A DNA stretch of 64,000 nt from Gemmatimonadales bacterium (GCA_041615815.1 JBFJCP010000016.1:1-64000), one strand, 5' to 3'; numbered from the stretch's first letter, positions 1-45,135 are shown. The notes: generated by a model not told the origin, from the letters alone. Made by a program: numbers and translations.

Positions 1-1032
1 AATCCGGAGCACCAACACGTTGACGAAGAGCCCAATGAGTCGCTCGAGTTCTGGAAGCTCACGGTTGGCCACCGGTGACCCAAACACGATCTCGTCCTGA
101 CGGGCGTAACGGGCGAGTGCCACCCCGGTCGCCGCCAGCAGAATCATAAAGAGCGTCGCCCCCTCGGCGTGAGCCACGGCGGTGAGACGCTCCACGTGCA
201 CAGCCGGTATCTCGAACGTCTGAGCGGTCCCGCGGTAGCGTTGGACGGCGGGACGTGGTCGGTCCGTCGGCAGCTCCAGTAACGGTAACTCACCGTCCAG
301 CTGGTCCTGCCAGTAGCGCAGCAGGCGCGCATACCGCTCGCCACTCAGCCAGTGCCGCTGCCAAGCTGCGTAGTCACCGTACCGGACCGGCAACTCGGGA
401 AGCGTGGGCTCGATGTTCTCGAGGTGCGCTTCGTACGCGGCGACGACTTCGCTGCGGAGGATGCCTAGCGACCACCCATCGATCACCGTGTGGTCCGCCG
501 CGAGGAGGAGGATGTGCTCCGACGTGGTCAGACGCAGCAGGCGGGCACGGATCAACGGGCCGGTGGCGAGGTGGAACCCCGCGGTGGCTTCTTCCTCCAG
601 AACCGCCGCAACGGCAGCCGCGCGCTCTTCGTCCGAAAGCGCCGACAAGTCGACCAGTGGGACGTCGAGACGAAGCGACTCCTCCACGATCTGCACCGGC
701 TCCGAACCCAGCATCCCGAACCTCGTGCGTAACGGCGCGTGGCGCTGCACCACGAGGTTGAGGCTCTCGATGAGCGCGCTGGCATCGAGCGGGCCGAGGA
801 TCCGGTAGGCGGTCCGAACCGTGTAGATGGGGGCGTCGGGTTCAAGCTGATCTAGGTACCACAGCCGCTCTTGGGCAAACGACAGCGGTGCGGGAGTGGC
901 ATCGGGCCGTCGAGGGATGCGGGGCGCCGCGTCGTCATCGGTGGCACTCCCGCGCAAACGACGCTCCAACAGGGCGCGCTTGGCCGGCGACAGTTTCGCG
1001 AAGCGCGCCGATCGATCCGGGGCTTCAGACAT
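1..1032 (-). CDS. NRPS subunit 3, N-terminal docking region and condensation domain (partial, runs off left edge)
   Basis: Not in ORF track. ATG at 1032 overlaps the upstream stop (ATGTCTGA). Manual translation gives MSEAPDRSARFAKLSPAKRALLERRL...LSFAQERLWYLDQLEP...ADHTVIDGWS, i.e. the C1 motif and an xHxxxDG motif. Confidence 0.92.
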   Translation of the reverse strand, partial: MSEAPDRSARFAKLSPAKRALLERRLRGSATDDDAAPRIPRRPDATPAPLSFAQERLWYLDQLEPDAPIYTVRTAYRILGPLDASALIESLNLVVQRHAPLRTRFGMLGSEPVQIVEESLRLDVPLVDLSALSDEERAAAVAAVLEEEATAGFHLATGPLIRARLLRLTTSEHILLLAADHTVIDGWSLGILRSEVVAAYEAHLENIEPTLPELPVRYGDYAAWQRHWLSGERYARLLRYWQDQLDGELPLLELPTDRPRPAVQRYRGTAQTFEIPAVHVERLTAVAHAEGATLFMILLAATGVALARYARQDEIVFGSPVANRELPELERLIGLFVNVLVLRI

Positions 1033-4000
1033 CCGATGGATCCGCGGCGGCCAGGCGCTCCGCCTCCTCCTCGGAGAGCGCTTCTACCTCGGCAAGCAGC
1101 AGGTCCTCGATGGCGGTCGCGAGATCGGCGATGGTCGGCGCTTCGAAGATGCGGCGCAACTCGAGTTCGATCTCGAAGTGCCGCCGCACGCGCGCGATGA
1201 TGCGCGTGGCGAGGAGAGAATGTCCGCCCACCTCGAAGAAGTTGTCGTACACGCTCACCTCGGATATCCCGAGCACTTCTTGCCAGGACTCCGCCAAGAA
1301 CCGTTCGGTATCGGTGCGCGGCACAACTCGCTCAACGTCCGATTCCCATTCCAGCTCCCCGGGATCGGGTAGGGCTTTCCGATCCACCTTCCGGGTCGTG
1401 GTCAGGGGGAAGGCGTCCAATTGCACCAACTGCGCCGGCACCATGTACTCCGGAAGTTTCTCTCGGAGGTACTCCCGTAACACGGCGAGATCGACCGTGG
1501 TCCCCGGCTCTTGTGGGACGAAATAGGCTACGATACGCTTGTCGCCGCCACCGCGTTCATAGACGAGGGTCGCCGCCTGCCGCACGTCGGGATGATCCCC
1601 CATCACGGCCTCGATCTCACCTAATTCGATCCGAAATCCGCGGATCTTCACCTGATGGTCCGTCCGCCCGAAAAACTCGAGGTTGCCGTCCGGCCGCCAG
1701 CGGCACACGTCCCCGCTCTTGTACATCCGCGCACCCGGCACGTCGCTGAACGGATTCGGCACGAATCGTTCGGCCGTGAGCTCGGGCCGGTTCAGATACC
1801 CGCGTCCCACCAGCTCCCCACCGATGTAGAGCTCACCCGGCACGCCCACCGGCACGGGTTGGCGCAGCGGATCCAAGACGTAGAGCTGGGTATTCAACAA
1901 GGGGACACCGATCGGGATGTTGGGCATCCCGTCACCGTCTTCATCCCCCGCCGGCCAGAGACTGCACGTCACGGTCGTCTCCGTGGGACCGTAGGAGTTG
2001 AGCCACTCGATGTCGGTTCCCACGATACGACGCCACGCCCGAAACGCGCCGGGCATCGCTGCCTCACCCCCGGCCGCAACCACGCGTACGGTGCTCGGGA
2101 ACGGTGCACCACCTTCCAACGCCCCCACCCACTCGTGCCAAAACGCCGTGGGGAGATCCAGCACGGTGATCTGATTGGACTCCACGAATTCGTGAAACCG
2201 CTCGAACGAGCCGATGAGTTCGGTGGGCAGGAGGACCACACCACCACCCTTCAGCAACATCGGCAAGATCTCTTCGCTTCCGGTGTCGAAAGCGATGGAC
2301 GACAGCTGGAGAATACGATCGTCCTCGTGGAGGGAGAAGAAATCATTGAGGCTGGCGCAGAGATTCATGAACGCCCGATGTTGAATCTCGACGCCCTTGG
2401 GCCGGCCGGTAGATCCTGACGTATAGATGACGTACAGCACGTTCGTGGGATCGGCCGTGCGTCCCAGGTTGTCTGCCGACTCCTCCGCAATGCGATCCCA
2501 ATCGCGATCCAGGCAGATGGTGGTGCCCGGATACGCCGGGAGGCGTTCGAGCATATCCTCGTGCGTGAGCAAGACCGGCGCGTCCGTATCTTCGAAGATG
2601 AAGGTCATTCGCTCGGGGGGATATCGCGGGTCCAGCGGTACATACGCGGCACCGGCTTTGAGAATCCCGAGGAGGCTCACCACCATGTCCAGCGATTTCT
2701 CCACGAACATGCTCACGAGCGATCCGGCGGATACGCCGAATTGCTGGAGATAGCGCGCGAGCTGATTGGCCCGTGCGTTCAACTCACGGAAGGTCAACAC
2801 CCCGTCCGGTGCGATCACCGCCGGAATGTCCGCTCGCGTTGCGGCCTGCTCTTCGAACACCTCGTGGACACAGCGATCGGCTCTGAAGTCGCCGGCCGTG
2901 TCGTTCCACGCGACCACCACCTGATGGCGTTCGTCTTCTGTGAGCAGCTGCAGGGCCCCAATCGGGGTCTCGGGATTGGAGATCGCTGCCCGTGCCAGCG
3001 TCTCGTAATGCCCGATCATGCGGCCAATCGTCTCGGCCTCGAACAGGTTGGTGTTGTACTCGAACCATCCTTGGAGTGCATCTTGGCTCTCGACGATGGA
3101 CAGGGTGAGATCGAAACGCGCCACCTTCGGGTCGATACGCCACGGTGTCATGGTTGCGCCGGGAAGCTCGAGCGTCTCCGTTGGCGCGCTTTGCCAATCG
3201 AACATCACCTGGAAGACTGGGTGGCGATCTACGTTCCGTTCGGGATGGAGTTCCTCTACCAATCGCTCGAAGGGCAACTCCTGGTGCGTGTAGGCATTCA
3301 ACGTCGTCTCGGACACCCGTTGCACGAGGTCGCGAAAGCTCGGATTGTCGGACAGATCCGTTCGGAGCGCGATCGTGTTCACGAAGAAGCCGATCATGTG
3401 CTCCAGCTCACCGCGATTGCGATTGGCGATCGGCGTGCCGACGATGATGTCGCCGAGCCGAGTGTACCGGTGAAGGAGCACCTGGAACAGGGCGAGGAGC
3501 GTCATGAAGAGCGTGACGCCCTGCTCCCGACCGATCTCCCGCAAACCGTCGGCCACCTCGGCGGGAATCGTGAACCCGGTCTCAGCTCCATTTGGCGCCA
3601 GGGCAGCACTGCGAGGTTTGTCCGTCGGCAGCTCGAGAATCGGGAGCCTCCCACCCAACTGATCCATCCAGTACGCGAGCTGCTGGCTCACCACCTCGCC
3701 CTGGAGCCGCTGTCGCTGCCACACCGCAAAGTCCGCATACTGAATCGGTAGGGGCACCAGCACGGGAGGACGTCCGTTCAGTGCCCCACGGTAGAGCTCC
3801 GCAAGCTCCCGTTGAAACACCCCTCGCGACCACCCGTCAAACGCCGCATGGTGCATCGTACAAGCCAGCACATGGTCTCCCCGGTGACGTGAGAAGAGCC
3901 GGGCTCGCAGCAACGGTCCGTTGGCCAGGTCGAACGGCCGCCGCGCTTCCTCCGCCACCAGCGCTTCCAAAGCCGCGTCCCCCATGTCGCCGACATCCTC

Positions 4001-4369
4001 GACGGGAACGGCCACGATCACCGGTGGTCCTATGACCTGCGTCGGGTCTCCATCCACGACGCGAAAGCTGGTGCGCAGGACCTCGTGGCGTTTCACGATC
4101 TCGCTCAGCGCGCCCTCGAGTGCCGCCACGTCCACGGTTCCCCTCAACCGGTAGCAATCCGGGAGATTGTATGCCGGGGTGCCAGGCTCGAGCTGGTCGA
4201 AGAACCAGAGACGCTCCTGCCCGAACGACAAAGGAACGGTGCCCTCCGCCGGACGACGGGGGATGCCGCCGTCGCTGTCCCGACGGATTCCTTTTTGCTC
4301 GAGCATCCGGGCGATCAGGGCGCGCTGGTGCTCGGATGGTCCGGCTGCTCGTGACGGTGGTTGGCTCAC
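1025..4369 (-). CDS. NRPS subunit 2, single module C-A-T
   Basis: C: LSFGQERLWF and HHAAFDG. A: YTSGSTGRPKG, YGPTE, YKSGD, GRTDHQVKIRGFRIELGEIE. T: FFEVGGHSLL. GTG start with AGGAAG upstream. Confidence 0.97.
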   Translation of the reverse strand: MSQPPSRAAGPSEHQRALIARMLEQKGIRRDSDGGIPRRPAEGTVPLSFGQERLWFFDQLEPGTPAYNLPDCYRLRGTVDVAALEGALSEIVKRHEVLRTSFRVVDGDPTQVIGPPVIVAVPVEDVGDMGDAALEALVAEEARRPFDLANGPLLRARLFSRHRGDHVLACTMHHAAFDGWSRGVFQRELAELYRGALNGRPPVLVPLPIQYADFAVWQRQRLQGEVVSQQLAYWMDQLGGRLPILELPTDKPRSAALAPNGAETGFTIPAEVADGLREIGREQGVTLFMTLLALFQVLLHRYTRLGDIIVGTPIANRNRGELEHMIGFFVNTIALRTDLSDNPSFRDLVQRVSETTLNAYTHQELPFERLVEELHPERNVDRHPVFQVMFDWQSAPTETLELPGATMTPWRIDPKVARFDLTLSIVESQDALQGWFEYNTNLFEAETIGRMIGHYETLARAAISNPETPIGALQLLTEDERHQVVVAWNDTAGDFRADRCVHEVFEEQAATRADIPAVIAPDGVLTFRELNARANQLARYLQQFGVSAGSLVSMFVEKSLDMVVSLLGILKAGAAYVPLDPRYPPERMTFIFEDTDAPVLLTHEDMLERLPAYPGTTICLDRDWDRIAEESADNLGRTADPTNVLYVIYTSGSTGRPKGVEIQHRAFMNLCASLNDFFSLHEDDRILQLSSIAFDTGSEEILPMLLKGGGVVLLPTELIGSFERFHEFVESNQITVLDLPTAFWHEWVGALEGGAPFPSTVRVVAAGGEAAMPGAFRAWRRIVGTDIEWLNSYGPTETTVTCSLWPAGDEDGDGMPNIPIGVPLLNTQLYVLDPLRQPVPVGVPGELYIGGELVGRGYLNRPELTAERFVPNPFSDVPGARMYKSGDVCRWRPDGNLEFFGRTDHQVKIRGFRIELGEIEAVMGDHPDVRQAATLVYERGGGDKRIVAYFVPQEPGTTVDLAVLREYLREKLPEYMVPAQLVQLDAFPLTTTRKVDRKALPDPGELEWESDVERVVPRTDTERFLAESWQEVLGISEVSVYDNFFEVGGHSLLATRIIARVRRHFEIELELRRIFEAPTIADLATAIEDLLLAEVEALSEEEAERLAAADPSDV

Positions 4370-4389: not shown

Positions 4390-7300
4390 CTATTCCGACA
4401 GCTGCGCCCGCACTTCGTCGTCGGACAACCCCTCGACGACCAAGAGGGTGTCTGCGATCTCGTCCACGACCTCTCTCCCACCCACGAGGTCGGCTAATTC
4501 TCCTACGAGGCCAGCGACCGTGGGGTGTTCGAAGAGCCCGCGCACCGGGACTTCGATTTGAAACCAGTCGCGCAAACGTGACACGACCTGGGTGGCCAGC
4601 AGCGAGTGTCCGCCGAGCTCGAAAAAGTTGTCGTCGATCCCGAGCGTCTCGACCGCCAGCACCTGTTGCCAGATGCCGTGGACGAACCGCTCCGCCGACG
4701 ACTGGGGCGCGCGGCCCGTGGCTGCACTAGTCCCTTGTTCGGGCACCGGCAGCGCCGCCCGGTCTACTTTACCATTGGGCGTGAGTGGAAGACGTTCCAA
4801 GAACACGTACTGCGCCGGCACCATATAGTCGGGCAACCGCTCGCGCAGGAAACGCCACAAGGTGGGTTGACGGAGGCCGTCTGCTCCAACGACATAGGCC
4901 ACCAGCCGCGATCGCCCCTCACTCTCCCAGAGTGCCACGGCGCATCGTCGCACCTCGGGATGCCGGTGCAACGCCTGCTCCACGTCCGCGAGCTCCACGC
5001 GGAATCCGCGGATCTTCACCTGATGGTCACGCCGCCCAATCAACTCCAATTGCCCATCGTTGCGGACGCGGGCCAGATCGCCGGTGCGGAACAGCCGGTC
5101 GTACGAGCCCTCCGCAAACGGGTTTTCGATGAATCGCTCGGCGGTCAAGGCGGGCAAGTTCAGGTACCCGTTGGCCAGGCACGCCCCAGCCACGCACATC
5201 TCACCGGTTGCCCCCTGTGGGACAGGCCGGAGACGCTCGTCGAGCACGTAGACGCGGGTGTTGGCCAGGGGTTTCCCAATGGGAACTCGCTCCGCGCTCA
5301 ACGACAGCTGTCTGGTGTCGTACACCGTCACGTTGGACGAACATTCCGTCGACCCGTACAAGTTGAGCAGCGGTACATCGTCGAAACACCGACGCCACCG
5401 AGCCACCATGGAAACGGGGATCGGTTCGGCGCTGGTGGAGGCAAAGCGGAGCGTCTGCCACTCCTCCGGATGTTGTTCGGCTTGATCCAGGATTCCCTCG
5501 AAAAACGCCGGTGATGCCAAGACGTGGCTGACGCCGTGGGTCACGAGGCGGCGCCAGATTGCGGCCGGATCGATGATCTCATCCTGTGACAGAATGACCG
5601 TCGGTATTCCCACCAGCAGTCCGCCAAAACACTCCCATGTGGCGGCCACGAGCGCATACGATTTCTGCAGCAGCGCCACATCACCGTCACGGAAGGGAAA
5701 CTCCTCCCACATCCAGCGAAGGCGATTGAGCACTGCCCGCATGGTGATCAGTGCGCCCTTTGGAGTCCCCGTGCTCGCCGAGGTGTACACCACGTTGAGA
5801 ACGCTGTCCGGCGTGGTCACCGGTGTCGGGTCTTCCAACCGCTCCTGTCCGATGGCTGATTGTTCCACATCCAGGACGATCGTGGTATCCGCAAAGTCCG
5901 TGAAGCGATTCAGCGTGGAGTGCACGATCAACACGTCCGGTTCGGCGTCGTCGAGGATCGCCTCGAGTCGGGGAGTGGGATACGTGGGCTCCAGCGCCAC
6001 ATAGGTTCCCCCCGCTTTCAGGACACCGAGAATAGCAACCATCATATCGAACGAGCGTGGGAGGCAGAGGGCTACCCGCGTACCCGTACTCACTTCGCGG
6101 GCCCTCAAGTAATGCGCGAGTTGATTGGCGCGCTCGTTGAGCTCGACATAGGAGATGCTCTGGCCTTCCCACAACAGGGCCGGCTCGTCCGGCGTTCGCC
6201 GTACTTGGGCCTCGAACAGCTCCGCGATGCCGGCCGAGAGATCGAAATCGCGATGCGTATCGTTCATCTCTTCCAGCAGCGCCTGACGCTCGGCCTCAGA
6301 CACCACGGGGAGCGTTGAGATGGGACGGTTGGGATTCTCAACCACACTCCGCAGCAGAGCCTCGTAATTCGCCACCATGCGGGCCACCGTCGCCTCGTCG
6401 AACAGATCGCTGAGGTAGGCGATTTGGACGAACAGCCGTTCGCCCTGCTCCTGCGCGTAAAACGACATGTCGTACTTCGTGTAACCCGTATCCAGCTCGC
6501 TGAACGAAAGGGTGAGGCCTTCCACTTCGCAGGCGGTGTGGGGAAGGTTCAGCATGTTGAACATGACTTGGAACACGGGCGAGACGCTCGTGTCCCGAGC
6601 GGTCCGTGTCCCTTCCGCCATCCACATGAACGGGTATTCGGCATTGCTGATGGCACCGGTCACTCTGGCGCGGACTCGTTCCATCAGCTCGAGGAAGGTC
6701 GGGTCATCGTCCAGCAGGGCCCGGAGCGGCAGCATGTTGAGAAAGAATCCCACGATCGCTTCGCTGTGCGCTGCCGTGCGATTGGCGATCGGCGATCCGA
6801 TGATGACGTCGTCTTGGCCGGAGTATCGCTGGAGCAACACGTACGATGCGGCCAACAGCGTCATGAACAATGTCGCGTTGGCGTCCGTGCTCAGCGCTCG
6901 CAGGCGTCCCGTGAGCTCGGCCTCGAGCATGGCGGTTTGGGCCGCACCGCGATACGTCGGTGTATTGGATCTGGGGCGGTCCACGGGCAACGCAAGGATC
7001 GGAAGTTCTCCCGCGAGTTGCTCTTGCCAATAGAGCTCCTGGGCTCTGAGCTTATCGCGCTGTAGCCGCTCCTGTTCCCACAACACGTAGTCGCCAAAGC
7101 CCACGGGCAGCGCGGGGAGCGGCTCCGACTCGCCCTGCCGGATCCGCCTATACAACTCACCGAGATCCTTCACGATCACGGAGATGCCCCAGAGATCGAG
7201 GATGATCTCTTGAAAGGTGATCAGGAGCTCATGGTGATCTTCGGCCAGCTTGAAGAGCTCGGGTTGCAGCAACGCGTCCAGCTCGAGGTCCAGTGCCCGT

Positions 7301-10300
7301 CGACCCTTGACTGCCGCTCGTGCTTGCAGATGGGAAAGCCGCTCCGCTTCCGGCAGGTGCGTGAGGTCGACGACCGAAAGTTCCGCGCATCGCCGATCAT
7401 CGAAGATCTGCACGGGACGATCGCCCTCCGTCGCAAATCGTGCTCGCAGCACGTCGTGGCGTTCGACGACGCCCCGCCAGGCTTCGCGCAACGCCGCCAG
7501 GTCGAGGTCGCCTCTGATGTGAATCGTCCCCTGCGCGGTGTAATAGGGGCTCTCGGGTTCCAGCCGCCAGAGGAACCACACGCCCTGTTGTGCCAGGCTC
7601 AACGGGTAGGCGGTTCGCCCATCCCGCTCCGCACCGCCCAGCTGCTGCAAGACCCCTTCTTGCACTTCCTCACCCAATCGCTCAGCGAGCTGTGCCACGG
7701 TGCCGTGCTCGAAAAGGTCTCGGAAGCTCACGGATGCGTCGAACACCTGGCGAAGACGATTGAGCACCTGCATGGCGAGGAGCGAGTCGCCGCCAAGCTC
7801 AAAAAACCCGTCGTGTACACCCACTCGCTCGAGTCCAAGTACCTCCGCCCAGATCGCAGCCACCCGTTCCTCGCGGGGGGTCCGCGGTGCCGTATACGGT
7901 TCGGCGAGCTCCGGCCGCACCACATCTGGCTCGGGCAACGCCTGCACGTCGAGTTTGCGATTCGCATTCAGCGGGAGGGCATCGAGTTGAATCAGCTGCT
8001 GCGGGATCATGTGCGCGGGGAGCTCGCTCTCGAGGAACTGGCGCAACGCAGACGGGGCCAGGCTCTCCCGCGTGGTGTAGTAAGCCACGAGCACCTTTTT
8101 CCCCTCAGCCCCCCCCGACGCTCTCACGTCTCGCTCCTTCGCCACCAGTGTGCCACGACCGGAACGCGCGGTGCGCACGAGCGCGGCACAATTCGCGACG
8201 GCGGGATGGCGCCGGACGCTCGCCTCCACGTCCCCGAGCTCCACACGAATACCACGCAACTTGACGAGGTTGTCGCGCCGTCCTAAGAACTCGATGGTCC
8301 CATCAGGGGTCCACCGACCCAGATCGCCCGTTCGGAAAACGGGATCTGCATCCCCGTCCGGCAGCGAATGGTCGAGGAAACGCGATGCCGTTTCCTGTTC
8401 CCGTTTGAAATAGCCAAGCGTCAGGTACGGGCTGCGGATGAAGAGCTCGCCCTGCACCCCGATAGGACACGGCAGCCCCGCCTTGTCGAGAATCAGAATC
8501 TGCCGGCCGCGAATCGGTCTCCCCACGGGCACGCTCTGGTCACCGGGCGACACTCGATCCACGTGATGGTACGAGGCCAGTACGGTTTCGCTGGGCCCGT
8601 ACAGATTGTACAGGGCCGGTGCGTCGGGAAACCGCAGAAGGTCGCGTGCCAAATCCACCGGGAGTACTTCACCGGCGAGCAACAGCAGCCGAACCGATGG
8701 CAAGGGGTGTCCGTCACCCTCCGCATGTTGCCGCAACACCTCTACGAGCTCACGGCAGAAGCTCGGAACGATCTGCAGGATGGTGATCCCCTCACGCCGC
8801 ACCCAATCCGCAAGCGCCGTCGGGTCATACCGCACCGCCTCGCTCGCCATGCACAACGTCGCTCCGAAACAGAGCGTGCCGAAAATCTCACAGTACGACG
8901 CATCGTAGGCGATCGATGCCCACTGTGCCCACCGTTCCGATGCGCCAATGTGGAATTGATCGCTCTGCCAAGTCACGAACTGTACGAAACTGCGATGCGA
9001 CTGCACGATCCCCTTGGGTCTGCCGGTGGACCCCGAGGTGTAAACGATGTACGCAACTCCGCTGGGATCGACATCGAGCCCGGGATTCTCGGCAGCCAGT
9101 TCGGCGAAGATAGCGTTCTCGGCGGGCTCCTCAGCATCGGCGTCCATCATCACTACGTGCGCCGCTGCGCGCTCGACCCACGCTGCGAGGTCCGGATGTC
9201 TGGCAAGCGCCCGAGCGTCCGCGATCAGGAACTCGGTCTCGGTTTCCTCGAGAATCTCCAGCAGACGGCGCGTAGGATGGACGGGATCCAGACAGACGAA
9301 GGCCGCCCCTGTCTTCAAGACACCCAGCATCGCCGTCACCTGCTGTGGTCCGTTCTCCAACAGCACCGCAACAGGTTGTTGGGCTTGGACGCCGTCGGCG
9401 ACGAGCCGGTGGGCAACGCGGTTGGCCTCACGGTTCAACTCGTCGTACGTGACGTGCCCCTCGCCGAAGGTGATAGCGATCGCCTCGGGCGTCTCGGCAA
9501 CATGTGCCTCGAAGAGCTCGTGTAGTGCTCTCGTGGGCGGCTCATCGTGGCGAGCATCCCATTCGGCGAGCTGCTGCGTCTCAGACGACGACAACAACGA
9601 CACAGTCGAGGGCGGTTGGTCCGGCTCGGTGATGGCCCCGTCCAACAGCTGTTCCAGATGGCCTGCGAGCCGCGCGGCGTCCGCCGCACCGAACACATCG
9701 GATGCATACCGCACGACGGCCCGGGGGACGCCGTCCCCCTCCTCCACCACCACCTCGAGATCGCATTCGGGACCAACGGGAACGACCTCCACCTCGGTGA
9801 CGACGAGCCGTTGCGCGGCATTGGAGAGCAGGGCTGAGCGGTGCCGAACGGTGAACCCCACCTGAGGCCGCGGGGGCGCCACGGGAGTGGAAGGCTGCGT
9901 TTCCGCCGCCTCCAGCTGCGCCGCCACTTGCTGCGACCACGCGCGAAAGGATCCGCCGCTCGAGAGCTCCACCGTGATCGGCTGCCGCTGCTCCAACGGT
10001 CCCACGATTCCGTCGCCGCCTTCGGCAGGAGCGTCCCGGCGCGCGAGCCACACGGTCACTCGATCCTCGTCGGAATACCGCCCCAGCAAGGCCACCACTG
10101 CCGTCAGCAGCAAGACGTGCACGGTGGTACCGACCTCGGTAGCCACGGTGTCCAGACCCTCGAGCGTGGGAGCGGGCAAGCTCAACGGTGCCGTGCGCGC
10201 CGTGGGCGGCCCGTCTGCGTGTATCGCGTGGCCAGGAAGGTGGAGCCGCTCAGGCTCGATGCCGCGTTGGGGACCAGATGGACCGTCCAGCCATGCTCTG

Positions 10301-10917
10301 AACGACGGGGCCTTCGGCTCGGTGAACACCGCACGCGAGTCCCTCTCGAGACGGAGATAGGTGGTCACGAGATCCTCGCCAAGCAGCAGGAGCGAGGGTT
10401 CGTCCGCGATGAGGCGGTGCGCGACGAGCACGAGCACATGCTCTCGGCGCGGCATGTGCACGATCGTGGCATCCAGCAGCGGCGGCGACCCAAGGTCGAA
10501 CTCTTTTCCGGCCGCCATGGCGACGAGCGCATCGCAGTGCGCCTCCGCGTCCCCAACCGTCTCCGCCGAAAGGTCGACGGTGCGGACACTCCCCGGAGCA
10601 GTCCGGAGCGTGTGTTGCATGGGCGGACCGTTGCGGACGGTGAAGCCGGTGCGCAGGGCGTCATGACGGACCAGGAGCGCGTCCAGGGCTGTGCCCAGCA
10701 CCGCGCGGTCCACCACACCGGTCAACCGCAGCCGGGCCACGACGTTGCGGATTCCCTGCTGGTGGGGCCCGTGTTGCAGATGCCAGATACGATCCTGCTC
10801 GGCGGACAGCCGAAACTCGCCCGCGCGGCCCGGAACCCCAGGCACGGCCGTCCGAGGTCGGTACCGGCCCCGGAGACGATCGAGCGTATCCATGGATGAC
10901 GTCATGGGCGGGCGCAT
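4390..10917 (-). CDS. NRPS subunit 1, two modules C*-A-T-C*-A-T, both C domains non-canonical
   Basis: Two A domains (YTSGSTGRPKG; YTSASTGTPKG) and two T domains (GGDSL; GGHSL). C motifs read HRLIADE and QEIILDL. Confidence 0.96.
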   Translation of the reverse strand: MRPPMTSSMDTLDRLRGRYRPRTAVPGVPGRAGEFRLSAEQDRIWHLQHGPHQQGIRNVVARLRLTGVVDRAVLGTALDALLVRHDALRTGFTVRNGPPMQHTLRTAPGSVRTVDLSAETVGDAEAHCDALVAMAAGKEFDLGSPPLLDATIVHMPRREHVLVLVAHRLIADEPSLLLLGEDLVTTYLRLERDSRAVFTEPKAPSFRAWLDGPSGPQRGIEPERLHLPGHAIHADGPPTARTAPLSLPAPTLEGLDTVATEVGTTVHVLLLTAVVALLGRYSDEDRVTVWLARRDAPAEGGDGIVGPLEQRQPITVELSSGGSFRAWSQQVAAQLEAAETQPSTPVAPPRPQVGFTVRHRSALLSNAAQRLVVTEVEVVPVGPECDLEVVVEEGDGVPRAVVRYASDVFGAADAARLAGHLEQLLDGAITEPDQPPSTVSLLSSSETQQLAEWDARHDEPPTRALHELFEAHVAETPEAIAITFGEGHVTYDELNREANRVAHRLVADGVQAQQPVAVLLENGPQQVTAMLGVLKTGAAFVCLDPVHPTRRLLEILEETETEFLIADARALARHPDLAAWVERAAAHVVMMDADAEEPAENAIFAELAAENPGLDVDPSGVAYIVYTSGSTGRPKGIVQSHRSFVQFVTWQSDQFHIGASERWAQWASIAYDASYCEIFGTLCFGATLCMASEAVRYDPTALADWVRREGITILQIVPSFCRELVEVLRQHAEGDGHPLPSVRLLLLAGEVLPVDLARDLLRFPDAPALYNLYGPSETVLASYHHVDRVSPGDQSVPVGRPIRGRQILILDKAGLPCPIGVQGELFIRSPYLTLGYFKREQETASRFLDHSLPDGDADPVFRTGDLGRWTPDGTIEFLGRRDNLVKLRGIRVELGDVEASVRRHPAVANCAALVRTARSGRGTLVAKERDVRASGGAEGKKVLVAYYTTRESLAPSALRQFLESELPAHMIPQQLIQLDALPLNANRKLDVQALPEPDVVRPELAEPYTAPRTPREERVAAIWAEVLGLERVGVHDGFFELGGDSLLAMQVLNRLRQVFDASVSFRDLFEHGTVAQLAERLGEEVQEGVLQQLGGAERDGRTAYPLSLAQQGVWFLWRLEPESPYYTAQGTIHIRGDLDLAALREAWRGVVERHDVLRARFATEGDRPVQIFDDRRCAELSVVDLTHLPEAERLSHLQARAAVKGRRALDLELDALLQPELFKLAEDHHELLITFQEIILDLWGISVIVKDLGELYRRIRQGESEPLPALPVGFGDYVLWEQERLQRDKLRAQELYWQEQLAGELPILALPVDRPRSNTPTYRGAAQTAMLEAELTGRLRALSTDANATLFMTLLAASYVLLQRYSGQDDVIIGSPIANRTAAHSEAIVGFFLNMLPLRALLDDDPTFLELMERVRARVTGAISNAEYPFMWMAEGTRTARDTSVSPVFQVMFNMLNLPHTACEVEGLTLSFSELDTGYTKYDMSFYAQEQGERLFVQIAYLSDLFDEATVARMVANYEALLRSVVENPNRPISTLPVVSEAERQALLEEMNDTHRDFDLSAGIAELFEAQVRRTPDEPALLWEGQSISYVELNERANQLAHYLRAREVSTGTRVALCLPRSFDMMVAILGVLKAGGTYVALEPTYPTPRLEAILDDAEPDVLIVHSTLNRFTDFADTTIVLDVEQSAIGQERLEDPTPVTTPDSVLNVVYTSASTGTPKGALITMRAVLNRLRWMWEEFPFRDGDVALLQKSYALVAATWECFGGLLVGIPTVILSQDEIIDPAAIWRRLVTHGVSHVLASPAFFEGILDQAEQHPEEWQTLRFASTSAEPIPVSMVARWRRCFDDVPLLNLYGSTECSSNVTVYDTRQLSLSAERVPIGKPLANTRVYVLDERLRPVPQGATGEMCVAGACLANGYLNLPALTAERFIENPFAEGSYDRLFRTGDLARVRNDGQLELIGRRDHQVKIRGFRVELADVEQALHRHPEVRRCAVALWESEGRSRLVAYVVGADGLRQPTLWRFLRERLPDYMVPAQYVFLERLPLTPNGKVDRAALPVPEQGTSAATGRAPQSSAERFVHGIWQQVLAVETLGIDDNFFELGGHSLLATQVVSRLRDWFQIEVPVRGLFEHPTVAGLVGELADLVGGREVVDEIADTLLVVEGLSDDEVRAQLSE

Positions 10918-10932
10918 TCGGAGGACTCTCGC

Positions 10933-12462
10933 TCAGGCCAACCCGAGCTCGGTAGCCCACGAATGGCGGCGGCGGCGGAAGCACTCGTGTGCCGCGTTGA
11001 TGTCGTCCGCCATCACGCGGTCTTTGTCGAGGAAGGTGACATGCTGGCGAAACTCGTCAAAAATCTCCTGCGTGATGGGTGAGAGTCGCAGCTCCTTGTT
11101 GAGCTCGATCGCTTGGGCTGCCGTCATCAACTCGATGGCCATGATGTAGGTCGCGTTCTCTACCACCGTCATGAGCTTGTACGCAGATGTCCCACCCATG
11201 CTGACGTGATCCTCCTGGAGCTGACAGGTGGGAATGGTATCCACGCTCGCCGGTGTGCACAGCACCTTGTTCTCGTTGACCAGCGCTGCCGACGTATACT
11301 GGGCAATCATGAAACCGGAATTGAGTCCGGGCTTGTTCACGAGGAAATCGGGCAGCCCCCGCTGTCCGGAGAGCAGCTGATAGGTGCGCCGTTCCGAGAT
11401 ATTGGCCAGCTCGCTGGTCGCCATGGCCAAAAAGTCGAGCATGAACGCCGGCGATTCGCCGTGGAGATTGCCGCCGAAGAGAATCGTATCCTCATCCGGG
11501 AAGAACAGCGGATTGTCCGACACACCGTTCAACTCTTGCTCGATCACCTGGGTCGCAAAGTTCACGACCTGCCGAATAGCGCCATGCACCTGCGGGGTGC
11601 ATCGGAACGAATACGGATCCTGCTTCGACTGATTGCATGTGGGGAGCTCGTGATGATTGCTGCCCTCGAGCAGCTTCACCATGTTCCGCGCCACGGTGCT
11701 CCGCTCGGCGTGGTGCGACGTGCTGTGATAGAGCGGCTGATAGAACGTCTCGGAGGTGCTGAACGCCTGCGAGCTGAGAGCGGCCAAAAGGTCGGCGCAC
11801 TTCACCAAATCCACGATCTGCAGCAGGCACTCGACGGCGATGGCCGTGATGTACTGCACACCGTTGGTCAGCGCCAAGCCCTCTTTCGGCTTGAGCCGGA
11901 GCGGCGCGGCCCCGAGCGCCTTCAAGGCCTCTGCCCCATCGATCGTGGTGCCGTTCCGATGGACCTGACCGAGACCGAGCAACGGGAGCGCCATATGGGC
12001 AAGGGGTGCCAGGTCTCCGCTGGCCCCCACCGTGCCCTTCTTCGGAATCACGGGAATCAGTTCCTGATTCCACAGTTCGAGCAGCCTTGTCACGGGATCG
12101 AGCGAGATACCGGTGTGACCGCTCCGAAAGGTGAGCAGCTTGATGAGCAGCGTCAGCCGGGAGATGCGCTCCGGAACGGCCTCCCCCACACCTACCGCGT
12201 GCGACACGACGTGGTTGAACTGCAGCGCCTCCATCTCGTCGCCCGCCACCCGCGTCTCGCAGAGCGAGCCGAAGCCCGTATTCGTACCGTAGATGTAGCG
12301 ATCTTCGGCTGCTTTGGCGCGCACGAACTCCGCCCCTCGATTGATTCTCGCTTGAACCGCCGACGACAGTGCGAGGCGAGGTCTTTCCTCGACCAGACGA
12401 CCGAGGTCACCCAGCGAGTAGTAGTCCATCGAGACCGCATGAGTCTTGGTGGCTGTCACCAT
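10933..12462 (-). CDS. MIO-dependent aromatic amino acid lyase/aminomutase family enzyme, histidine ammonia-lyase-like
   Basis: YGTNTGFG, VSHAVGVG, GTVGASGDLAPLAH (MIO-forming ASG), QDPYSFRC, GFMIAQY, QEDHVSM. Start moved to ATG 12462 (GGAGG upstream), giving 509 aa. Confidence 0.95.
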   Translation of the reverse strand: MVTATKTHAVSMDYYSLGDLGRLVEERPRLALSSAVQARINRGAEFVRAKAAEDRYIYGTNTGFGSLCETRVAGDEMEALQFNHVVSHAVGVGEAVPERISRLTLLIKLLTFRSGHTGISLDPVTRLLELWNQELIPVIPKKGTVGASGDLAPLAHMALPLLGLGQVHRNGTTIDGAEALKALGAAPLRLKPKEGLALTNGVQYITAIAVECLLQIVDLVKCADLLAALSSQAFSTSETFYQPLYHSTSHHAERSTVARNMVKLLEGSNHHELPTCNQSKQDPYSFRCTPQVHGAIRQVVNFATQVIEQELNGVSDNPLFFPDEDTILFGGNLHGESPAFMLDFLAMATSELANISERRTYQLLSGQRGLPDFLVNKPGLNSGFMIAQYTSAALVNENKVLCTPASVDTIPTCQLQEDHVSMGGTSAYKLMTVVENATYIMAIELMTAAQAIELNKELRLSPITQEIFDEFRQHVTFLDKDRVMADDINAAHECFRRRRHSWATELGLA

Positions 12463-12484: not shown

Positions 12485-13471
12485 TCAGGCAGATCGTAGC
12501 CGCTGTCGTTGCGACCTCCGTTCGAGTTGTTCCAGGCAATCTCGGATCGCCCCGTAGTCCTCGTCGGCCAGCTTTTGACCGTGCGAGAACGGGAAGGATT
12601 CTGGAATCTCGCGGAATGGCTCGACCGGCGCACCGTGCTCGTTCATGAACGTGGCGATCCGCGCCAGCTCGGACCGTGGCCGCTCACAGACGTCGCGGTA
12701 GCGGACCTCGAGAAACCGGTCGTTCCCTACCGCGCGGCGTTGCCGCTCGAGGTGTTCCCGCACGTAAAACACTTGCTTACACACTTGATGACTCAACGCC
12801 TCGCCGCTGATCTCATCGCACTCGGGCGGTCGCCCGCCGAACCAGTCGGGATAGTCGGTCTGCCGCGCACGAAAGATCGATTGCGCGGTGTCCGCGAGAT
12901 CACGACTCACGAGAATAAAGATTGCCCGGGGAAAGATCCGGACCAGCGCCTCGATTCTGAGGTTCAGCGAACAGGTCTTGTTTACGAACGGCAACCGGAA
13001 AACACGCTCGGTATCCGCCACGGCCCGGTACATCTTCTCGATCTGCGTGGGCGTCAGGGTCTTCGCAGCCACTGCGTCGTACTTCGTGCCAAAATAATGT
13101 CCCCAGATCTGTTCACCCTCAGCCGGAGCGCTCTTTCCGCGAATCTGGCCGAAGCGGCTCTGGAAGGGGGCAGCCTCGTAATGATCGTCCGTGGGGGGCG
13201 ACCCGCAGAAGAGATGGACCATCCGCGCCGTGGTATACGGCAGCGGCCGTCCAAGGAGCCGGAACGATTCGCCCATCAGATTGGTGAAGTGACACGTGGT
13301 GAGCCCCCACGAAACCACCTGCCGAGTCACGGTGGTGCCGCTCCGCGCCGGCCCGACGATGAACGTCGGGGGAAAGCGGAGCTCGTAGGGACGCCGCGGG
13401 AACCGCTCCACGACTTGCAGGAGCCGGTACATGGACCTGCGGGCGGCAATTGCGAGTTTCCATCGCTTCAC
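12485..13471 (-). CDS. Sulfotransferase family protein
   Basis: 5'-PSB-like FIVGPARSGTT and 3'-PB-like ILVSRDLADTAQS. GTG start overlaps the thioesterase stop (GTGA) with a GGAGG RBS. Confidence 0.88.
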   Translation of the reverse strand: MKRWKLAIAARRSMYRLLQVVERFPRRPYELRFPPTFIVGPARSGTTVTRQVVSWGLTTCHFTNLMGESFRLLGRPLPYTTARMVHLFCGSPPTDDHYEAAPFQSRFGQIRGKSAPAEGEQIWGHYFGTKYDAVAAKTLTPTQIEKMYRAVADTERVFRLPFVNKTCSLNLRIEALVRIFPRAIFILVSRDLADTAQSIFRARQTDYPDWFGGRPPECDEISGEALSHQVCKQVFYVREHLERQRRAVGNDRFLEVRYRDVCERPRSELARIATFMNEHGAPVEPFREIPESFPFSHGQKLADEDYGAIRDCLEQLERRSQRQRLRSA

Positions 13472-14313
13472 CCGGCACCTCCCCACAGCCACGCCGCGAG
13501 ATCCTGCGCCACTGTCTCAAGCACATCAGCGCGCGCGTCTTGGAGAAAGAAATGCCCTCCGGGAAAGAGTCGGACCGCCGCCACGCTGTCCGTGTGGACG
13601 CGCCACCCCTCGAGCTCCCCGACGGGCACGAGCTGATCCTTTTCACCGCCGAGGATCGAGATGGGACACGCAAGCGGATGCTCGGTTCGGTGCTCATAGG
13701 TTTCGAAAACCCGAAAATCGGCCCGCAGCGTGGGGAGAACGAGATCCAGGAGCTCGTCGTTCCCCAGCAACTCCTCGGGAACGGTGCCGAGCCGGCGCAA
13801 TCCCGCCACGAAGTCCTCCCGCGGGAGTCCGTGCAACGGGTTCGACCGTGGAGTTTGCGGCGCCGGGGAGCCGGCCACGAAAAGCCCCACCGGACCCGGG
13901 AGCCCGTGGCGCCTCTGCCATCGGGCGAGCTCGAAGGCAATGAGGCCACCAAGACTGTGGCCAAAGAGACAAAACGGGGTTTCCGTCCATGGCTCGAGCG
14001 CCGGACCGACTGCTTCGAGCAAGGCCGCGAGATCGTCAAGCGGCGCCTCCACCCATCGTGTCTCTCGCCCGGGGAGTTGCACTCCGCAGACCTCGATGTC
14101 CGGCGGCAGCACGTTCTCCCAACTGCGAAACGCCGAAGCGCTGCCTCCGGCATGGGGAAAACCAATCAAGCGCACTCGAGCGCCGGGCCGGGGACGCACG
14201 TACGGCACCCAGCGACTGCGGCGACTCGCGCGCGGCACGTCCACGTCTGTCGAGACCGATTGTACTCCGTCGATGATCGCCTCCTGGATTGTGTGTCGCG
14301 ATTCGCGGTTCAC
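13468..14313 (-). CDS. Type II (editing) thioesterase, GrsT-like
   Basis: FPHAGGSAS, GHSLGG nucleophile motif, LRAD, GGHFF. Confidence 0.93.
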   Translation of the reverse strand: MNRESRHTIQEAIIDGVQSVSTDVDVPRASRRSRWVPYVRPRPGARVRLIGFPHAGGSASAFRSWENVLPPDIEVCGVQLPGRETRWVEAPLDDLAALLEAVGPALEPWTETPFCLFGHSLGGLIAFELARWQRRHGLPGPVGLFVAGSPAPQTPRSNPLHGLPREDFVAGLRRLGTVPEELLGNDELLDLVLPTLRADFRVFETYEHRTEHPLACPISILGGEKDQLVPVGELEGWRVHTDSVAAVRLFPGGHFFLQDARADVLETVAQDLAAWLWGGAG

Positions 14314-16058: not shown

Positions 16059-17297
16059 GTGTCATTACACGCTCCACACCCCGCTTTTGTCTGGGGCACG
16101 GGCTATCATGGCCTTGCCGTCTGTCGCAGTCTCGGCCGTCGCGGGATCCCGGTGGTCGTCTTCACCGGTTCGCCTCACGATATCGTTGCGCAATCACGAT
16201 ACGTGACGCGCGTCGTCCCGCTCACGGAACCCTTGAACGCTGCGGACTTCGTCACGGTCGCGTCCGAGGAATCGGCGCGGTTCCGGCGCCAACCGGTCTT
16301 CATCCCCATTCAGGATGCCTATCTCGAACTGATCTCGTCGCAGCGTGATCGACTCGCAGCACACGGTCTCGTCGATCTCCCGCCGCACGCACGGGTGGAG
16401 ATCGTGTCGGACAAGGCCCGCTTTGCGCAGCGATGTCGGCGTGCGGGGCTACCGATTCCGCACACGCAGGTGCTCGCGGCGCACGAAGACCTGGTACCCG
16501 CTGCGGAGCAACTTCCCTTCCCAGCCGTGCTCAAACCCACCAAATCGGTCGTCTGGGAGCAGCCGCGTGTGGTCGAGGCGTTCCACCGCGACAAGATTCT
16601 GATCGTGCACGACAAAGCCACGTTTCTCGCACAAGGAAGGCGTCTCTTGACGATCGCCGGCCCTCTCGTGGCGCAAGAGCTGGTGCCCGGACCATCCAAA
16701 CAGGAATTCGATTACCTCTCGTTCCGAAGCGAGGACTCCCATCGCTCCGTGGGACTCCTCACCGAGAAGCTCCGCCAACTCCCCATCACGGGCGGCAGCG
16801 GGAGCCTGCGTCGCCTCGTCGTACGATCCCGTCTGGAGAGCCTGGCGCACGACGCCCTCGACGCGCTCGGATGGACCGGTCCATCGGAGGTGAGCCTCAA
16901 GGTCGACGCTCGAACAGATACGCCGCGACTCATCGAGGTAAACGGGCGGCTCCCAGCCTGGTGTGCCCTGGCCTCCTGGTGCGACGTGGACTTTCCGCAC
17001 CTTGTTTATCGCAGTGCCATCGGGGATCACGGTGCCCGCCCTCCGCAGCCTTCGCGGCCGCGCGGGTACTGGATGGTGCTCGACATGGACGTGCGCGCGG
17101 CTCGGTCCGAAATGCGGGCGGGTGGGCTCTCGGTGATGGCGTGGCTCCGGTCGCTTCTGCGGGTTCGCTCGTGTGCGGAGCTCGCCCGAGACGATTGGAC
17201 ACCCATCGTCTGGGCGCTGAAGCGATTGATCCGCGCGCCGTGGGCACAACTTGCATCCACCATTCGCCGCCTGATTCCCGTTCGAGACACGGCCTGA
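16059..17297 (+). CDS. ATP-grasp carboxylate-amine ligase (D-aspartate ligase-like)
   Basis: DKARF, FPAVLKP, QELVPG, LIEVNGR; N-terminal GLAVCRSLGRRGI. Confidence 0.85.
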   Translation: MSLHAPHPAFVWGTGYHGLAVCRSLGRRGIPVVVFTGSPHDIVAQSRYVTRVVPLTEPLNAADFVTVASEESARFRRQPVFIPIQDAYLELISSQRDRLAAHGLVDLPPHARVEIVSDKARFAQRCRRAGLPIPHTQVLAAHEDLVPAAEQLPFPAVLKPTKSVVWEQPRVVEAFHRDKILIVHDKATFLAQGRRLLTIAGPLVAQELVPGPSKQEFDYLSFRSEDSHRSVGLLTEKLRQLPITGGSGSLRRLVVRSRLESLAHDALDALGWTGPSEVSLKVDARTDTPRLIEVNGRLPAWCALASWCDVDFPHLVYRSAIGDHGARPPQPSRPRGYWMVLDMDVRAARSEMRAGGLSVMAWLRSLLRVRSCAELARDDWTPIVWALKRLIRAPWAQLASTIRRLIPVRDTA

Positions 17298-45038: not shown

Positions 45039-45135
45039 CAAACCGTCTCCTGCGAACGGGGAAGAGTATGGGACAAGGTATGCACGACCCAGGATTGTTC
45101 CCAGGCGCCCTACGATGTGCCTGGTTGAGAGACCG

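Follow-up and report, generated by a model that had tools for sequence, protein, structure and literature searches.

We analysed a 64,000-nucleotide stretch of a Gemmatimonadales bacterium (GCA_041615815.1, JBFJCP010000016.1:1-64000; the window), which harbours a nonribosomal peptide synthetase (NRPS) gene, NRPS1 (4390-10917, minus strand, 2175 aa). According to the open reading frame (ORF) call and Pfam, NRPS1 has the domain order C*-A1-T1-C2-A2-T2, in which C, A and T are condensation, adenylation and carrier domains and C* is a degenerate N-terminal C domain. In module 2, C2 carries a glutamate at the position of the catalytic histidine (Glu type) and A2 lacks the pocket aspartates. Both changes are shared by homologues from several phyla, and C2-A2-T2 most likely represents an active, conserved NRPS sub-class, for which decay is improbable judging from its conservation. 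This Glu-type module is real and conserved, and it is apparently undescribed. All features of NRPS1 and its cluster given below lie on the minus strand.

C2 (6274-7614) was identified by Pfam, phmmer, alignment and tree as an LCL-derived condensation domain in a separate clade. Its active-site motif reads QEIILDLWG (7186-7212, residues 1236-1244). When C2 was aligned to the solved Txo1, Txo2 and DhbF domains, QE was placed on HH and DL on DG, so that Glu1237 stands at the catalytic-His position and the second His of HHxxxDG is missing (QEIILDL). Otherwise C2 is an ordinary LCL-like domain, 36% identical to Txo1/Txo2, and its AlphaFold model (pLDDT 91.7) gave Txo1/Txo2-type LCL domains as best Foldseek matches (TM 0.83-0.89). 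A sequencing or assembly error in QEIILDLWG can be dismissed, since a soil contig from a different study matches the motif region exactly (X7 record 28, 7114-7296, 0 differences); a record from a further study (X6 record 21) also spans the region, with 3 differences somewhere within 344 bases. In the family described below the motif is HExxxD (76 HE and 3 QE, n=79), the Q of the window being a local variant, and the position of the motif Gly holds L/A/G. The first-pass annotation had called C2 His-less. This was correct for the catalytic His, but by alignment it is the second His alone that is lost in the family, the first being kept.

Comparison of 83 family with 399 background C domains revealed about 30 family-specific conserved positions in C2, among them W1117, Q1129, E1237, E1281, M1395, Y1428, W1432, N1454, Y1482 and Y1487. 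Asn1454 (6556-6558) is conserved in 94% of the family and in 4% of ordinary C domains, and in the alignment its counterpart in heterocyclisation (Cy) domains is the PVVFTS Thr, a residue that we take to be catalytic there. Glu does not occur at the catalytic-His position in any C motif (n=405) of the 117 ordinary NRPSs compared. According to PMC10212144, the HHxxxD motif is near-universal across C subtypes except Cy.

The adenylation domain of the same module, A2 (4759-6225), has the specificity code VAWLSSLSNK, the P-loop TSAST (5770-5784), the A4 region LVAATWE (5632-5652), NLYGS (5350-5364) and the catalytic Lys in GKVDR (4759-4773); the T2 carrier follows (4498-4695, LGGHSL at 4600-4617). 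The positions given for QEIILDLWG, LVAATWE and TSAST in the first-pass annotation, as well as its code, all check out. Both pocket aspartates are gone from A2 (A236, N331), and in 113 of 114 pockets of the family Asp is absent from positions 235, 236 and 331. Among 82 family pockets, 72 read exactly VAWLTSLSNK; S330/N331 is invariant in the family, and A2 has V235. Position 302 is Ala in 80/82 and position 325 is S/A, never Pro, in 82/82, and the A2 pocket is small (W239, A302). The P-loop Gly, kept in all 339 scoreable ordinary A domains, is replaced by Ser or Ala in 73/82.

In the tree, the A2 family is the sister of A domains with a VDW code (support 0.995); VDWV[IV]SLADK is presumably the beta-alanine code. 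By this placement A2 descends from beta-alanine-type A domains, with whose code it had been compared in the first-pass annotation. With these domains A2 has in common V235, W239, S301, L322, a residue other than Pro at 325 and the standard loop length. It differs from them in D236 to A/G, D331 to N, the P-loop Gly to Ser/Ala, Ala302 and the Glu-type C partner.

The family was collected with the 131-residue A2 pocket alone as query, the C motif being excluded. This search returned 84 proteins (P0125 and P0126 look identical), from which 82 carry the pocket. A C domain lies directly upstream in 79 of these 82, and it has Glu at the catalytic-His position in 79/79. HH is present in the two weak matches, one of which has the beta-alanine code. 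Further family members came from a profile search of 1.84 billion representatives, and every A domain of the 336 collected proteins was then scored against the pocket, after removal of 18 redundant cluster members. From 100 bits upward we found 114 A domains, whose upstream C domain is Glu-type in 96 cases, HQ in one, HH in one, absent in 14 and unaligned in two. Glu was thus found in 96 of 98 readable upstream C domains, and it is the HH case that has the only Asp-bearing pocket (Asp331) of the 114. Glu was found in 2 of 882 below 100 bits, one of them a misalignment. In the band between 70 and 100 bits, A domains with the beta-alanine code keep their Asp, and the C domain is His-type in 11 of 12, the twelfth being a misalignment. 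P0240, at first listed as Glu-type, has a misaligned, truncated C domain and was dropped. The first-pass annotation had asked whether homologues conserve QE and the missing Asp together; in both sets, the two changes do go together. A reciprocal search with the 81-residue region of the C motif recovered only its query among 62 candidates. With the full C2-A2 region as query, multi-module NRPSs crowded out other matches, and they were reused as background.

These counts bear on the idea that C2 still forms a C-N acyl bond, with an unusual nitrogen acceptor that Glu positions or deprotonates. The acceptor could be beta-alanine or glycine, with Ser/Asn as the holding residues, or else a hydrazine, hydroxylamine or amide nitrogen of weak basicity. 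A2 does nest with beta-alanine-code domains, streptothricin ORF18 with HQxxxDM is active without the second His (PMC11546977), the Glu of HHxxxDE helps to position glycine (PMC8097023) and McyG activates Phe despite Val235 (PMC11253843). However, an Asp at 235, 236 or 331 has been lost from all but one of the 114 pockets, the beta-alanine-code neighbours keep theirs and sit behind a His-type C domain, and the single member keeping Asp331 also keeps HH. We therefore regard an unusual amide as rather improbable.

FastTree trees were calculated for 122 C domains and 107 A domains, both being midpoint-rooted subsets of family and background. The C-domain phylogeny, proposed as a check in the first-pass annotation, placed C2 with the other Glu-type domains in one clade (0.998) beside the LCL domains. 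The family A2 domains also form one clade (0.998), and these two single clades indicate that the C2-A2 pairing arose once.

Family members were found in metagenome-assembled genomes of Gemmatimonadota and Chloroflexota, in Clostridium, Sorangium and Actinokineospora, and in 23 rhizobial or Paraburkholderia plasmid records, 11 of which were read. A weak cyanobacterial match stands beside these plasmid records. Within module 2, NRPS1 is 56-69% identical to its orthologues. In samples of genomes the family is patchy and rare: it was present in 3 of 401 Gemmatimonadota (including G000), and in 2 of 301 and 1 of 201 genomes of other samples. Two further samples gave 0 of 301 each, with scoring limited to 14 candidates in any genome and no positive control, which does not amount to absence; the Sorangium member is known from the pocket search despite zero-count genome samples. 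An A2-type pocket without a Glu-type C domain was found in P0168, P0234, P0244, P0250, P0267, P0197 and P0199. The contexts are a starter fused to a reducing polyketide synthase module, stand-alone A-T proteins, which carry Arg-rich C-terminal tails, and a position before a normal C domain and TauD.

Could module 2 be inactive or skipped, as a scaffold or through decay? Loss of the catalytic His kills tested C domains (H2697Q retains about 1%, PMC8097023), and the P-loop Gly is replaced in most family A2s. On the other hand, pairwise dN/dS (nonsynonymous to synonymous rate ratio) over four pairs, of which window-L001 has dS near saturation, was 0.08-0.15 for C2, 0.085-0.14 for A2 and 0.08-0.12 for A1, and 0.20-0.45 for C* of the same gene. 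In addition, the pocket is near-invariant across phyla. Lys517 and the A7 T/SGD motif are each kept in 82/82 family A2s, and the serine motif of T2 could be located in 81/82 members. The preserved Lys517, A7 and T2 Ser together with the low dN/dS argue that the Glu-type module is most likely active. Furthermore, the two-module cassettes described below would have little to make if the module were skipped, and stand-alone A-T copies exist. Recent decay or a skipped module had been named as the alternative; as homologues share both losses and are under purifying selection, we consider it highly improbable.

The position of the module is constant too. Of 113 entries flagged as Glu-type (partly redundant, with 11 related plasmid proteins and five locus translations included), 102 follow exactly one A domain without an intact C domain before it. 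The others comprise 10 entries without a countable upstream A domain (stand-alone modules, fragments and one missed motif) and one misalignment. All 102 scoreable Glu-type C domains hence sit behind a single, unacylated first residue, across several A1 code types, and the upstream C domain, where present, is degenerate. In NRPS1 this is C* (9568-10815), with HRLIADE (10399-10419) as motif, which is eroded or truncated among relatives. C* is predicted to be probably inactive, so that the amine of the A1 residue would stay free. By this pattern the donor would always be a single residue whose amine is free and, in many cases, lies beta or gamma to the thioester.

The window A1 (7918-9525, followed by the T1 carrier at 7675-7869 with LGGDSL at 7780-7797) has the code DACQLALLAK, keeps Asp235 and has a loop after YGPSE that is one residue short (YGPSETVLAS). 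Such a loop is reported as a hallmark of beta-amino-acid loaders (PMC11253843), and by motif count it was present in 28/30 DACQ and 16/17 DARN A1s. Compared with VinN, the window A1 has the Asp235 and the short loop, but not the bulky residues at 236 and 301 (A236 and A301 versus F231/S299 in VinN, PMC11253843). In the tree, A1 has been exchanged among several clades, namely DACQ/DARN beta-type, DIWE/DIWQ and DARS/DARH; the DIWE codes resemble the diaminopropionate (Dap) code of SulA3 (PMC12042044). Judged by loop and code, the donors thus resemble beta-amino acids (DACQ/DARN) or diamino acids (DIWE). Whatever the A1 code or clade, the small subdomain holds an insertion with the core L-x-A-[KR]-[ED] (in the window about 25 residues within 8080-8180, with LVAKERD at 8128-8148). 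The strict motif occurs in 72 of 93 family A1s, most of the other 21 being similar, and in 10 of 753 other A domains. The insertion thus accompanies the C2-A2 cassette, and a contact between it and C2 is possible.

The smallest versions of the system were found on plasmids. The plasmid and actinomycete loci consist of an NRPS with the order A-T-C(HE)-A-T and an epimerisation-like domain, together with a MATE exporter and mostly a phosphopantetheinyl transferase (PPTase). In L045-L055 and L057-L058, this C-terminal domain has the motif HH[FL]xxDG and an eroded second motif, and it probably serves as a release domain. No ketoreductase (KR) domain was found in the plasmid NRPSs read, and 10 of the 11 plasmid loci have no cytochrome P450 or dioxygenase gene, a 2-oxoglutarate/iron (2OG-Fe) gene being present upstream in L046 only. 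No precursor gene is shared by the 11 plasmid loci and one actinomycete locus. Since these loci lack both a shared precursor gene and a histidine ammonia-lyase (HAL), the A2 substrate is probably a common metabolite and not urocanate.

A sigma-54-like -24/-12 motif with TGT-N10-ACA about 100 bases upstream was seen in three of the 11 plasmid loci (L046, L049 and L055, of which L049 and L055 are close kin; no chance control). The L047 cassette lies behind nifHDKENX-fdxB, with an insertion sequence between. Going by these sigma-54/NifA-like promoter motifs and sequence contexts, expression of the plasmid cassette in nodules is possible. A dicarboxylate/amino acid symporter gene is located just upstream in four of the 11 loci (L049, L050, L054 and L055, all Sinorhizobium); as these loci are non-independent, the symporter genes are weak backing for a dicarboxylate substrate.

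Directly upstream of NRPS1, a gene encodes a HAL-type enzyme of the 4-methylideneimidazole-5-one (MIO) group (10933-12462). It has the MIO tripeptide as well as SH and QEDH, which we take to be HAL-type motifs. It scored 546 bits with the hutH hidden Markov model (cut-off 539) and far below the cut-offs of the aminomutase models, and among MIO aminomutases (SgcC4, AdmH) and HAL, PDB and NCBIfam comparisons put it with HAL. Motifs are not known to separate ammonia-lyases from aminomutases. The enzyme is a second, cluster-dedicated HAL-type copy: a housekeeping HAL beside hutU and hutI, 36% identical to it, is encoded elsewhere in the genome. A HAL-type gene lies directly upstream in nine loci (the window, L001-L004, L022, L023, L036 and L041), and no HAL was found near the module in 13 (L024, the 11 plasmid loci and the actinomycete G1498); L021, L025 and L026 were too short to score. 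Eight of the nine HAL-linked loci have DACQ-type A1 codes. In L023 the HAL-type gene stops early (9269-10330, a 354-aa frame), the A1 code differs and the loop is apparently short too.

The HAL-type gene therefore tracks the A1 type, with Asp235 kept and a beta-type loop, and is missing beside 13 loci with A2, which ties it to A1 and not to A2. Probably the enzyme feeds A1. Coupling between an MIO enzyme and an A domain of beta type is the pattern of aminomutases, and we put at about even odds that the enzyme is a histidine aminomutase making beta-histidine. According to a 2022 review (PMC9002059), genomes had given no apparent evidence for a histidine aminomutase. The first-pass annotation had proposed urocanate, or acylation of an imidazole, as A2 chemistry. 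Urocanate from the neighbouring HAL could be loaded by A2, and C2 would then perform a Michael addition or imidazole acylation. In its favour are the directly adjacent second HAL-type gene in nine loci and the scores of the enzyme, which passes the hutH cut-off and fails those for aminomutases. Yet the same pocket occurs without a nearby HAL in the 13 loci (a distant hut operon may still supply urocanate), the pocket is small, and HAL accompanies A1s with Asp235 and the beta-type loop. We regard this part of the earlier proposal as very unlikely.

The other part, an acceptor that lacks an amine and chemistry other than amide formation, is still the best reading. In the version that we favour, at slightly less than an even chance, the roles of the two substrates are reversed, as suggested by the amine-free acceptor, the donor that always has an amine, the replacement of His by Glu and a polar residue at the Cy-type position. 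A2 would adenylate a small amine-free acid with an electrophilic carbon from central metabolism, a 2-oxo acid or enoate of the pyruvate, oxaloacetate or fumarate type, and load it onto T2. In C2, Glu1237 would act as acid/base together with Asn1454 and further polar residues specific to the family, and the free amine of the T1-bound amino acid would attack the acid carbon, giving an imine/enamine or an aza-Michael adduct. Either hydrolysis or a ring closure by C- or N-acylation would then free the T1 thioester. T2 would be left with a starter, N-alkylated or N-heterocyclic, to be passed to the ordinary modules downstream. With beta-histidine as the probable donor, the window product would have four modules and an imidazole-bearing, plausibly metal-binding head.

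The pocket is consistent with a 2-oxo acid in two positions, as a hydrophobic 235 and a non-Pro 325 are the reported hallmarks of 2-oxo-acid A domains (PMC11253843) and A2 has both. No KR follows, as found for NRPS1 by Pfam. With the 2-oxo/2-hydroxy-acid A domains StsA, EnSyn A1 and engineered TycA, A2 shares an aliphatic residue at 235, with StsA the non-Pro 325 and with engineered TycA a polar 330 (PMC11253843), whereas it differs in the missing KR, its ancestry and a polar pocket lined by Thr/Ser/Asn.

These residues could also be explained by a hydroxy acid. In that case A2 would load glycolate, lactate, glycerate or 3-hydroxypropionate and C2 would form an ester, Glu being the stronger base for a hydroxyl. 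We rate this as unlikely, though a serious competitor. Hydroxy acids are primary metabolites and known starters, and the change from Asp331 to Asn is the one expected on going from an ammonium to a hydroxyl group. Other ester-forming C domains that were tested reportedly keep their His, which counts against the ester, and the rule of a first, unacylated donor would be left unaccounted for. The O-acylating C-family member MxgH needs its His (H142, PMC13638107), and the engineered hydroxy-acid loader, in spite of a polar 330 like S330/N331 here and the small aliphatic 235 of such loaders, like V235, prefers Pro325 (PMC11253843), found in 0/82 family A2s.

Several points weigh against the electrophilic-acid reading. 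Since the beta-alanine ancestors have a non-Pro 325 as well, this position gives no independent indication of a 2-oxo acid; a hydroxy acid would agree with Ser330 too (engineered TycA I330C, PMC11253843), and Val235 is compatible with an amino acid (McyG, PMC11253843). The pocket works without a Glu-type C domain in P0168, P0197, P0199 and the stand-alone A-T proteins, and this says nothing on electrophilicity. By the trees, the counts of co-occurring Glu and Asp-less pocket speak for conservation over a long time and not for co-evolution that was repeated independently. Glu-type C domains next to A domains of other types are known from a sample (2/882, one misaligned), and the position rule may be an inherited architecture. 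The missing bulky residues at 236/301 of A1 weaken the beta-histidine donor. Finally, substrate and chemistry are both deduced from sequence alone.

A more specific version would have C2 form rings or C-C bonds from a beta-amino-acyl donor, with a 2-oxo acid (enamine/Claisen acylation, cyclodehydration) or an enoate (Michael addition, ring closure), so that the product would be an N-heterocycle with a six-membered ring or an N-alkyl beta-lactam. For the window, beta-histidine from a first histidine 2,3-aminomutase would become an imidazolyl-dihydropyridone metal-binding head, thiazole-extended in relatives. We consider this version doubtful. Cy-A-T-Ox follows the Glu-type module in P0020, P0025 and G315.

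Comparison with known systems placed the module within the NRPS framework, and yet outside its described classes. With LCL C domains (Txo1/Txo2, DhbF, TycC) C2 shares the fold, the sequence type and the C-A-T context, and its family keeps the first His and the Asp of the motif, but C2 differs in Glu for the catalytic His, L/A/G for Gly, the separate clade and the constant position behind one unacylated residue. The likeness to Cy domains is limited to the polar residue at the PVVF-T-S position (Asn1454); the Cy motif DxxxxD is absent in C2, the Cy domains of P0020/P0163 differ in motif, and that of P0163 falls outside the Glu-type clade. As in X and interface domains the His is lost, but no partner oxygenase was found in the window cluster or in 10 of the 11 plasmid loci, and the trees held no reference X or I domain. 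Ureido-forming NRPS starters have the order A-T-C-A-T, with a second A domain that loads an amino acid and keeps Asp235. The Glu-type module shares with them the position at the chain start and the free donor amine, but its A2 has no Asp235. NocB C5 reportedly keeps its His. For nocardicin, an amine undergoes conjugate addition within a C domain (NocB C5), and the same was proposed for bleomycin (PMC10880069). The modAA domain AmbE-C2 keeps HHxxxDG (PMC10880069), which Glu-type C domains do not. NocB and AmbE build the unsaturated partner on the donor, whereas the Glu-type module would have it as acceptor. Besides the motif, the upstream A1 codes are not Ser/Thr codes; the trees contained no reference modAA domain. 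Taken together, these sequence comparisons show that the Glu-type C-A-T lacks the defining motifs of LCL, Cy, modAA, ureido, beta-alanine and A-KR systems.

We found no description of the family in the literature, searched mostly without subscription journals, so that a characterised member may exist in print. Literature on specificity codes, on HAL with NRPS and urocanate, on rhizobial NRPS with MATE, and on urocanoyl-, fumaryl- or acryloyl-carrier proteins held nothing on it either. The available parts of PMC11284099, PMC11355689, PMC12186527 and PMC11446937 have no bearing on it. Three candidates were rejected: the 'special condensation domain' of PDB 8Z0Q is HtmB2-CT and unrelated to C2, the NCBIfam match to solanimycin SolG covers A domains only and lies far below the cut-off, and the atypical C domains of myxoglucamide, as given in the available part of PMC13638107, are of other types.

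In the window, a type II thioesterase gene (13468-14313, Pfam), a sulfotransferase-family gene (12485-13492, Pfam; also present in L001, L002, L003 and L042) and the HAL-type gene lie upstream of NRPS1 on the same strand. Downstream follow NRPS2 (1025-4369), the third module with canonical C(HHAAFDG)-A-T, and the start of NRPS3 (1-1032), a C domain with the motif DHTVIDG that is cut by the contig end. NRPS3 continues on contig C1 through an exact 141-base overlap (window 1-141 = G000:C1:1-141), with an A domain of glycine-like code and a T domain, followed by two alpha/beta hydrolases, which resemble TIGR03100/TIGR03101 with scores below cut-off, and a PPTase. No terminal thioesterase domain was found in the cluster continuing onto C1, and for the cluster in the window Pfam gave neither a P450 nor a dioxygenase. 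The same cluster is present in another genome of the same genus.

Contig C49 of G000 carries a second, ordinary multi-module NRPS region of about 16 kb with HH-type C domains; it was rejected as a continuation of the window cluster, as its motifs are ordinary HH and its ends do not overlap with the window contig. One contig end of C49 resembles C36. Elsewhere in the window, 42381-45041 (minus strand) encodes an 886-aa protein in which CDGSH, 4Fe-4S and Rieske domains are fused to a thiamine-diphosphate enzyme. A 412-aa ORF at 16059-17297 (plus strand) resembles by eye an ATP-grasp carboxylate-amine ligase, without a Pfam match, and is probably not part of the NRPS cluster.

Among the catalytic features of C domains, none is more conserved than the second His of HHxxxDG. 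Its role is still under debate (PMC11546977, PMC8097023), and a natural, multi-phylum family of about 100 sequences that has fixed Glu together with an amine-blind A pocket is a ready test of that debate. The Glu-type module probably carries out a new assembly-line reaction. For genome mining, HExxxD followed by V-A-W-x-T-S-L-S-N-K can be used as a marker, where prediction tools would call a broken or a beta-alanine module. Its HAL-type neighbour is a candidate histidine aminomutase. Culturable rhizobia have a version of only three genes on their symbiosis plasmids, which brings the product within reach and hints at a nodule metabolite.

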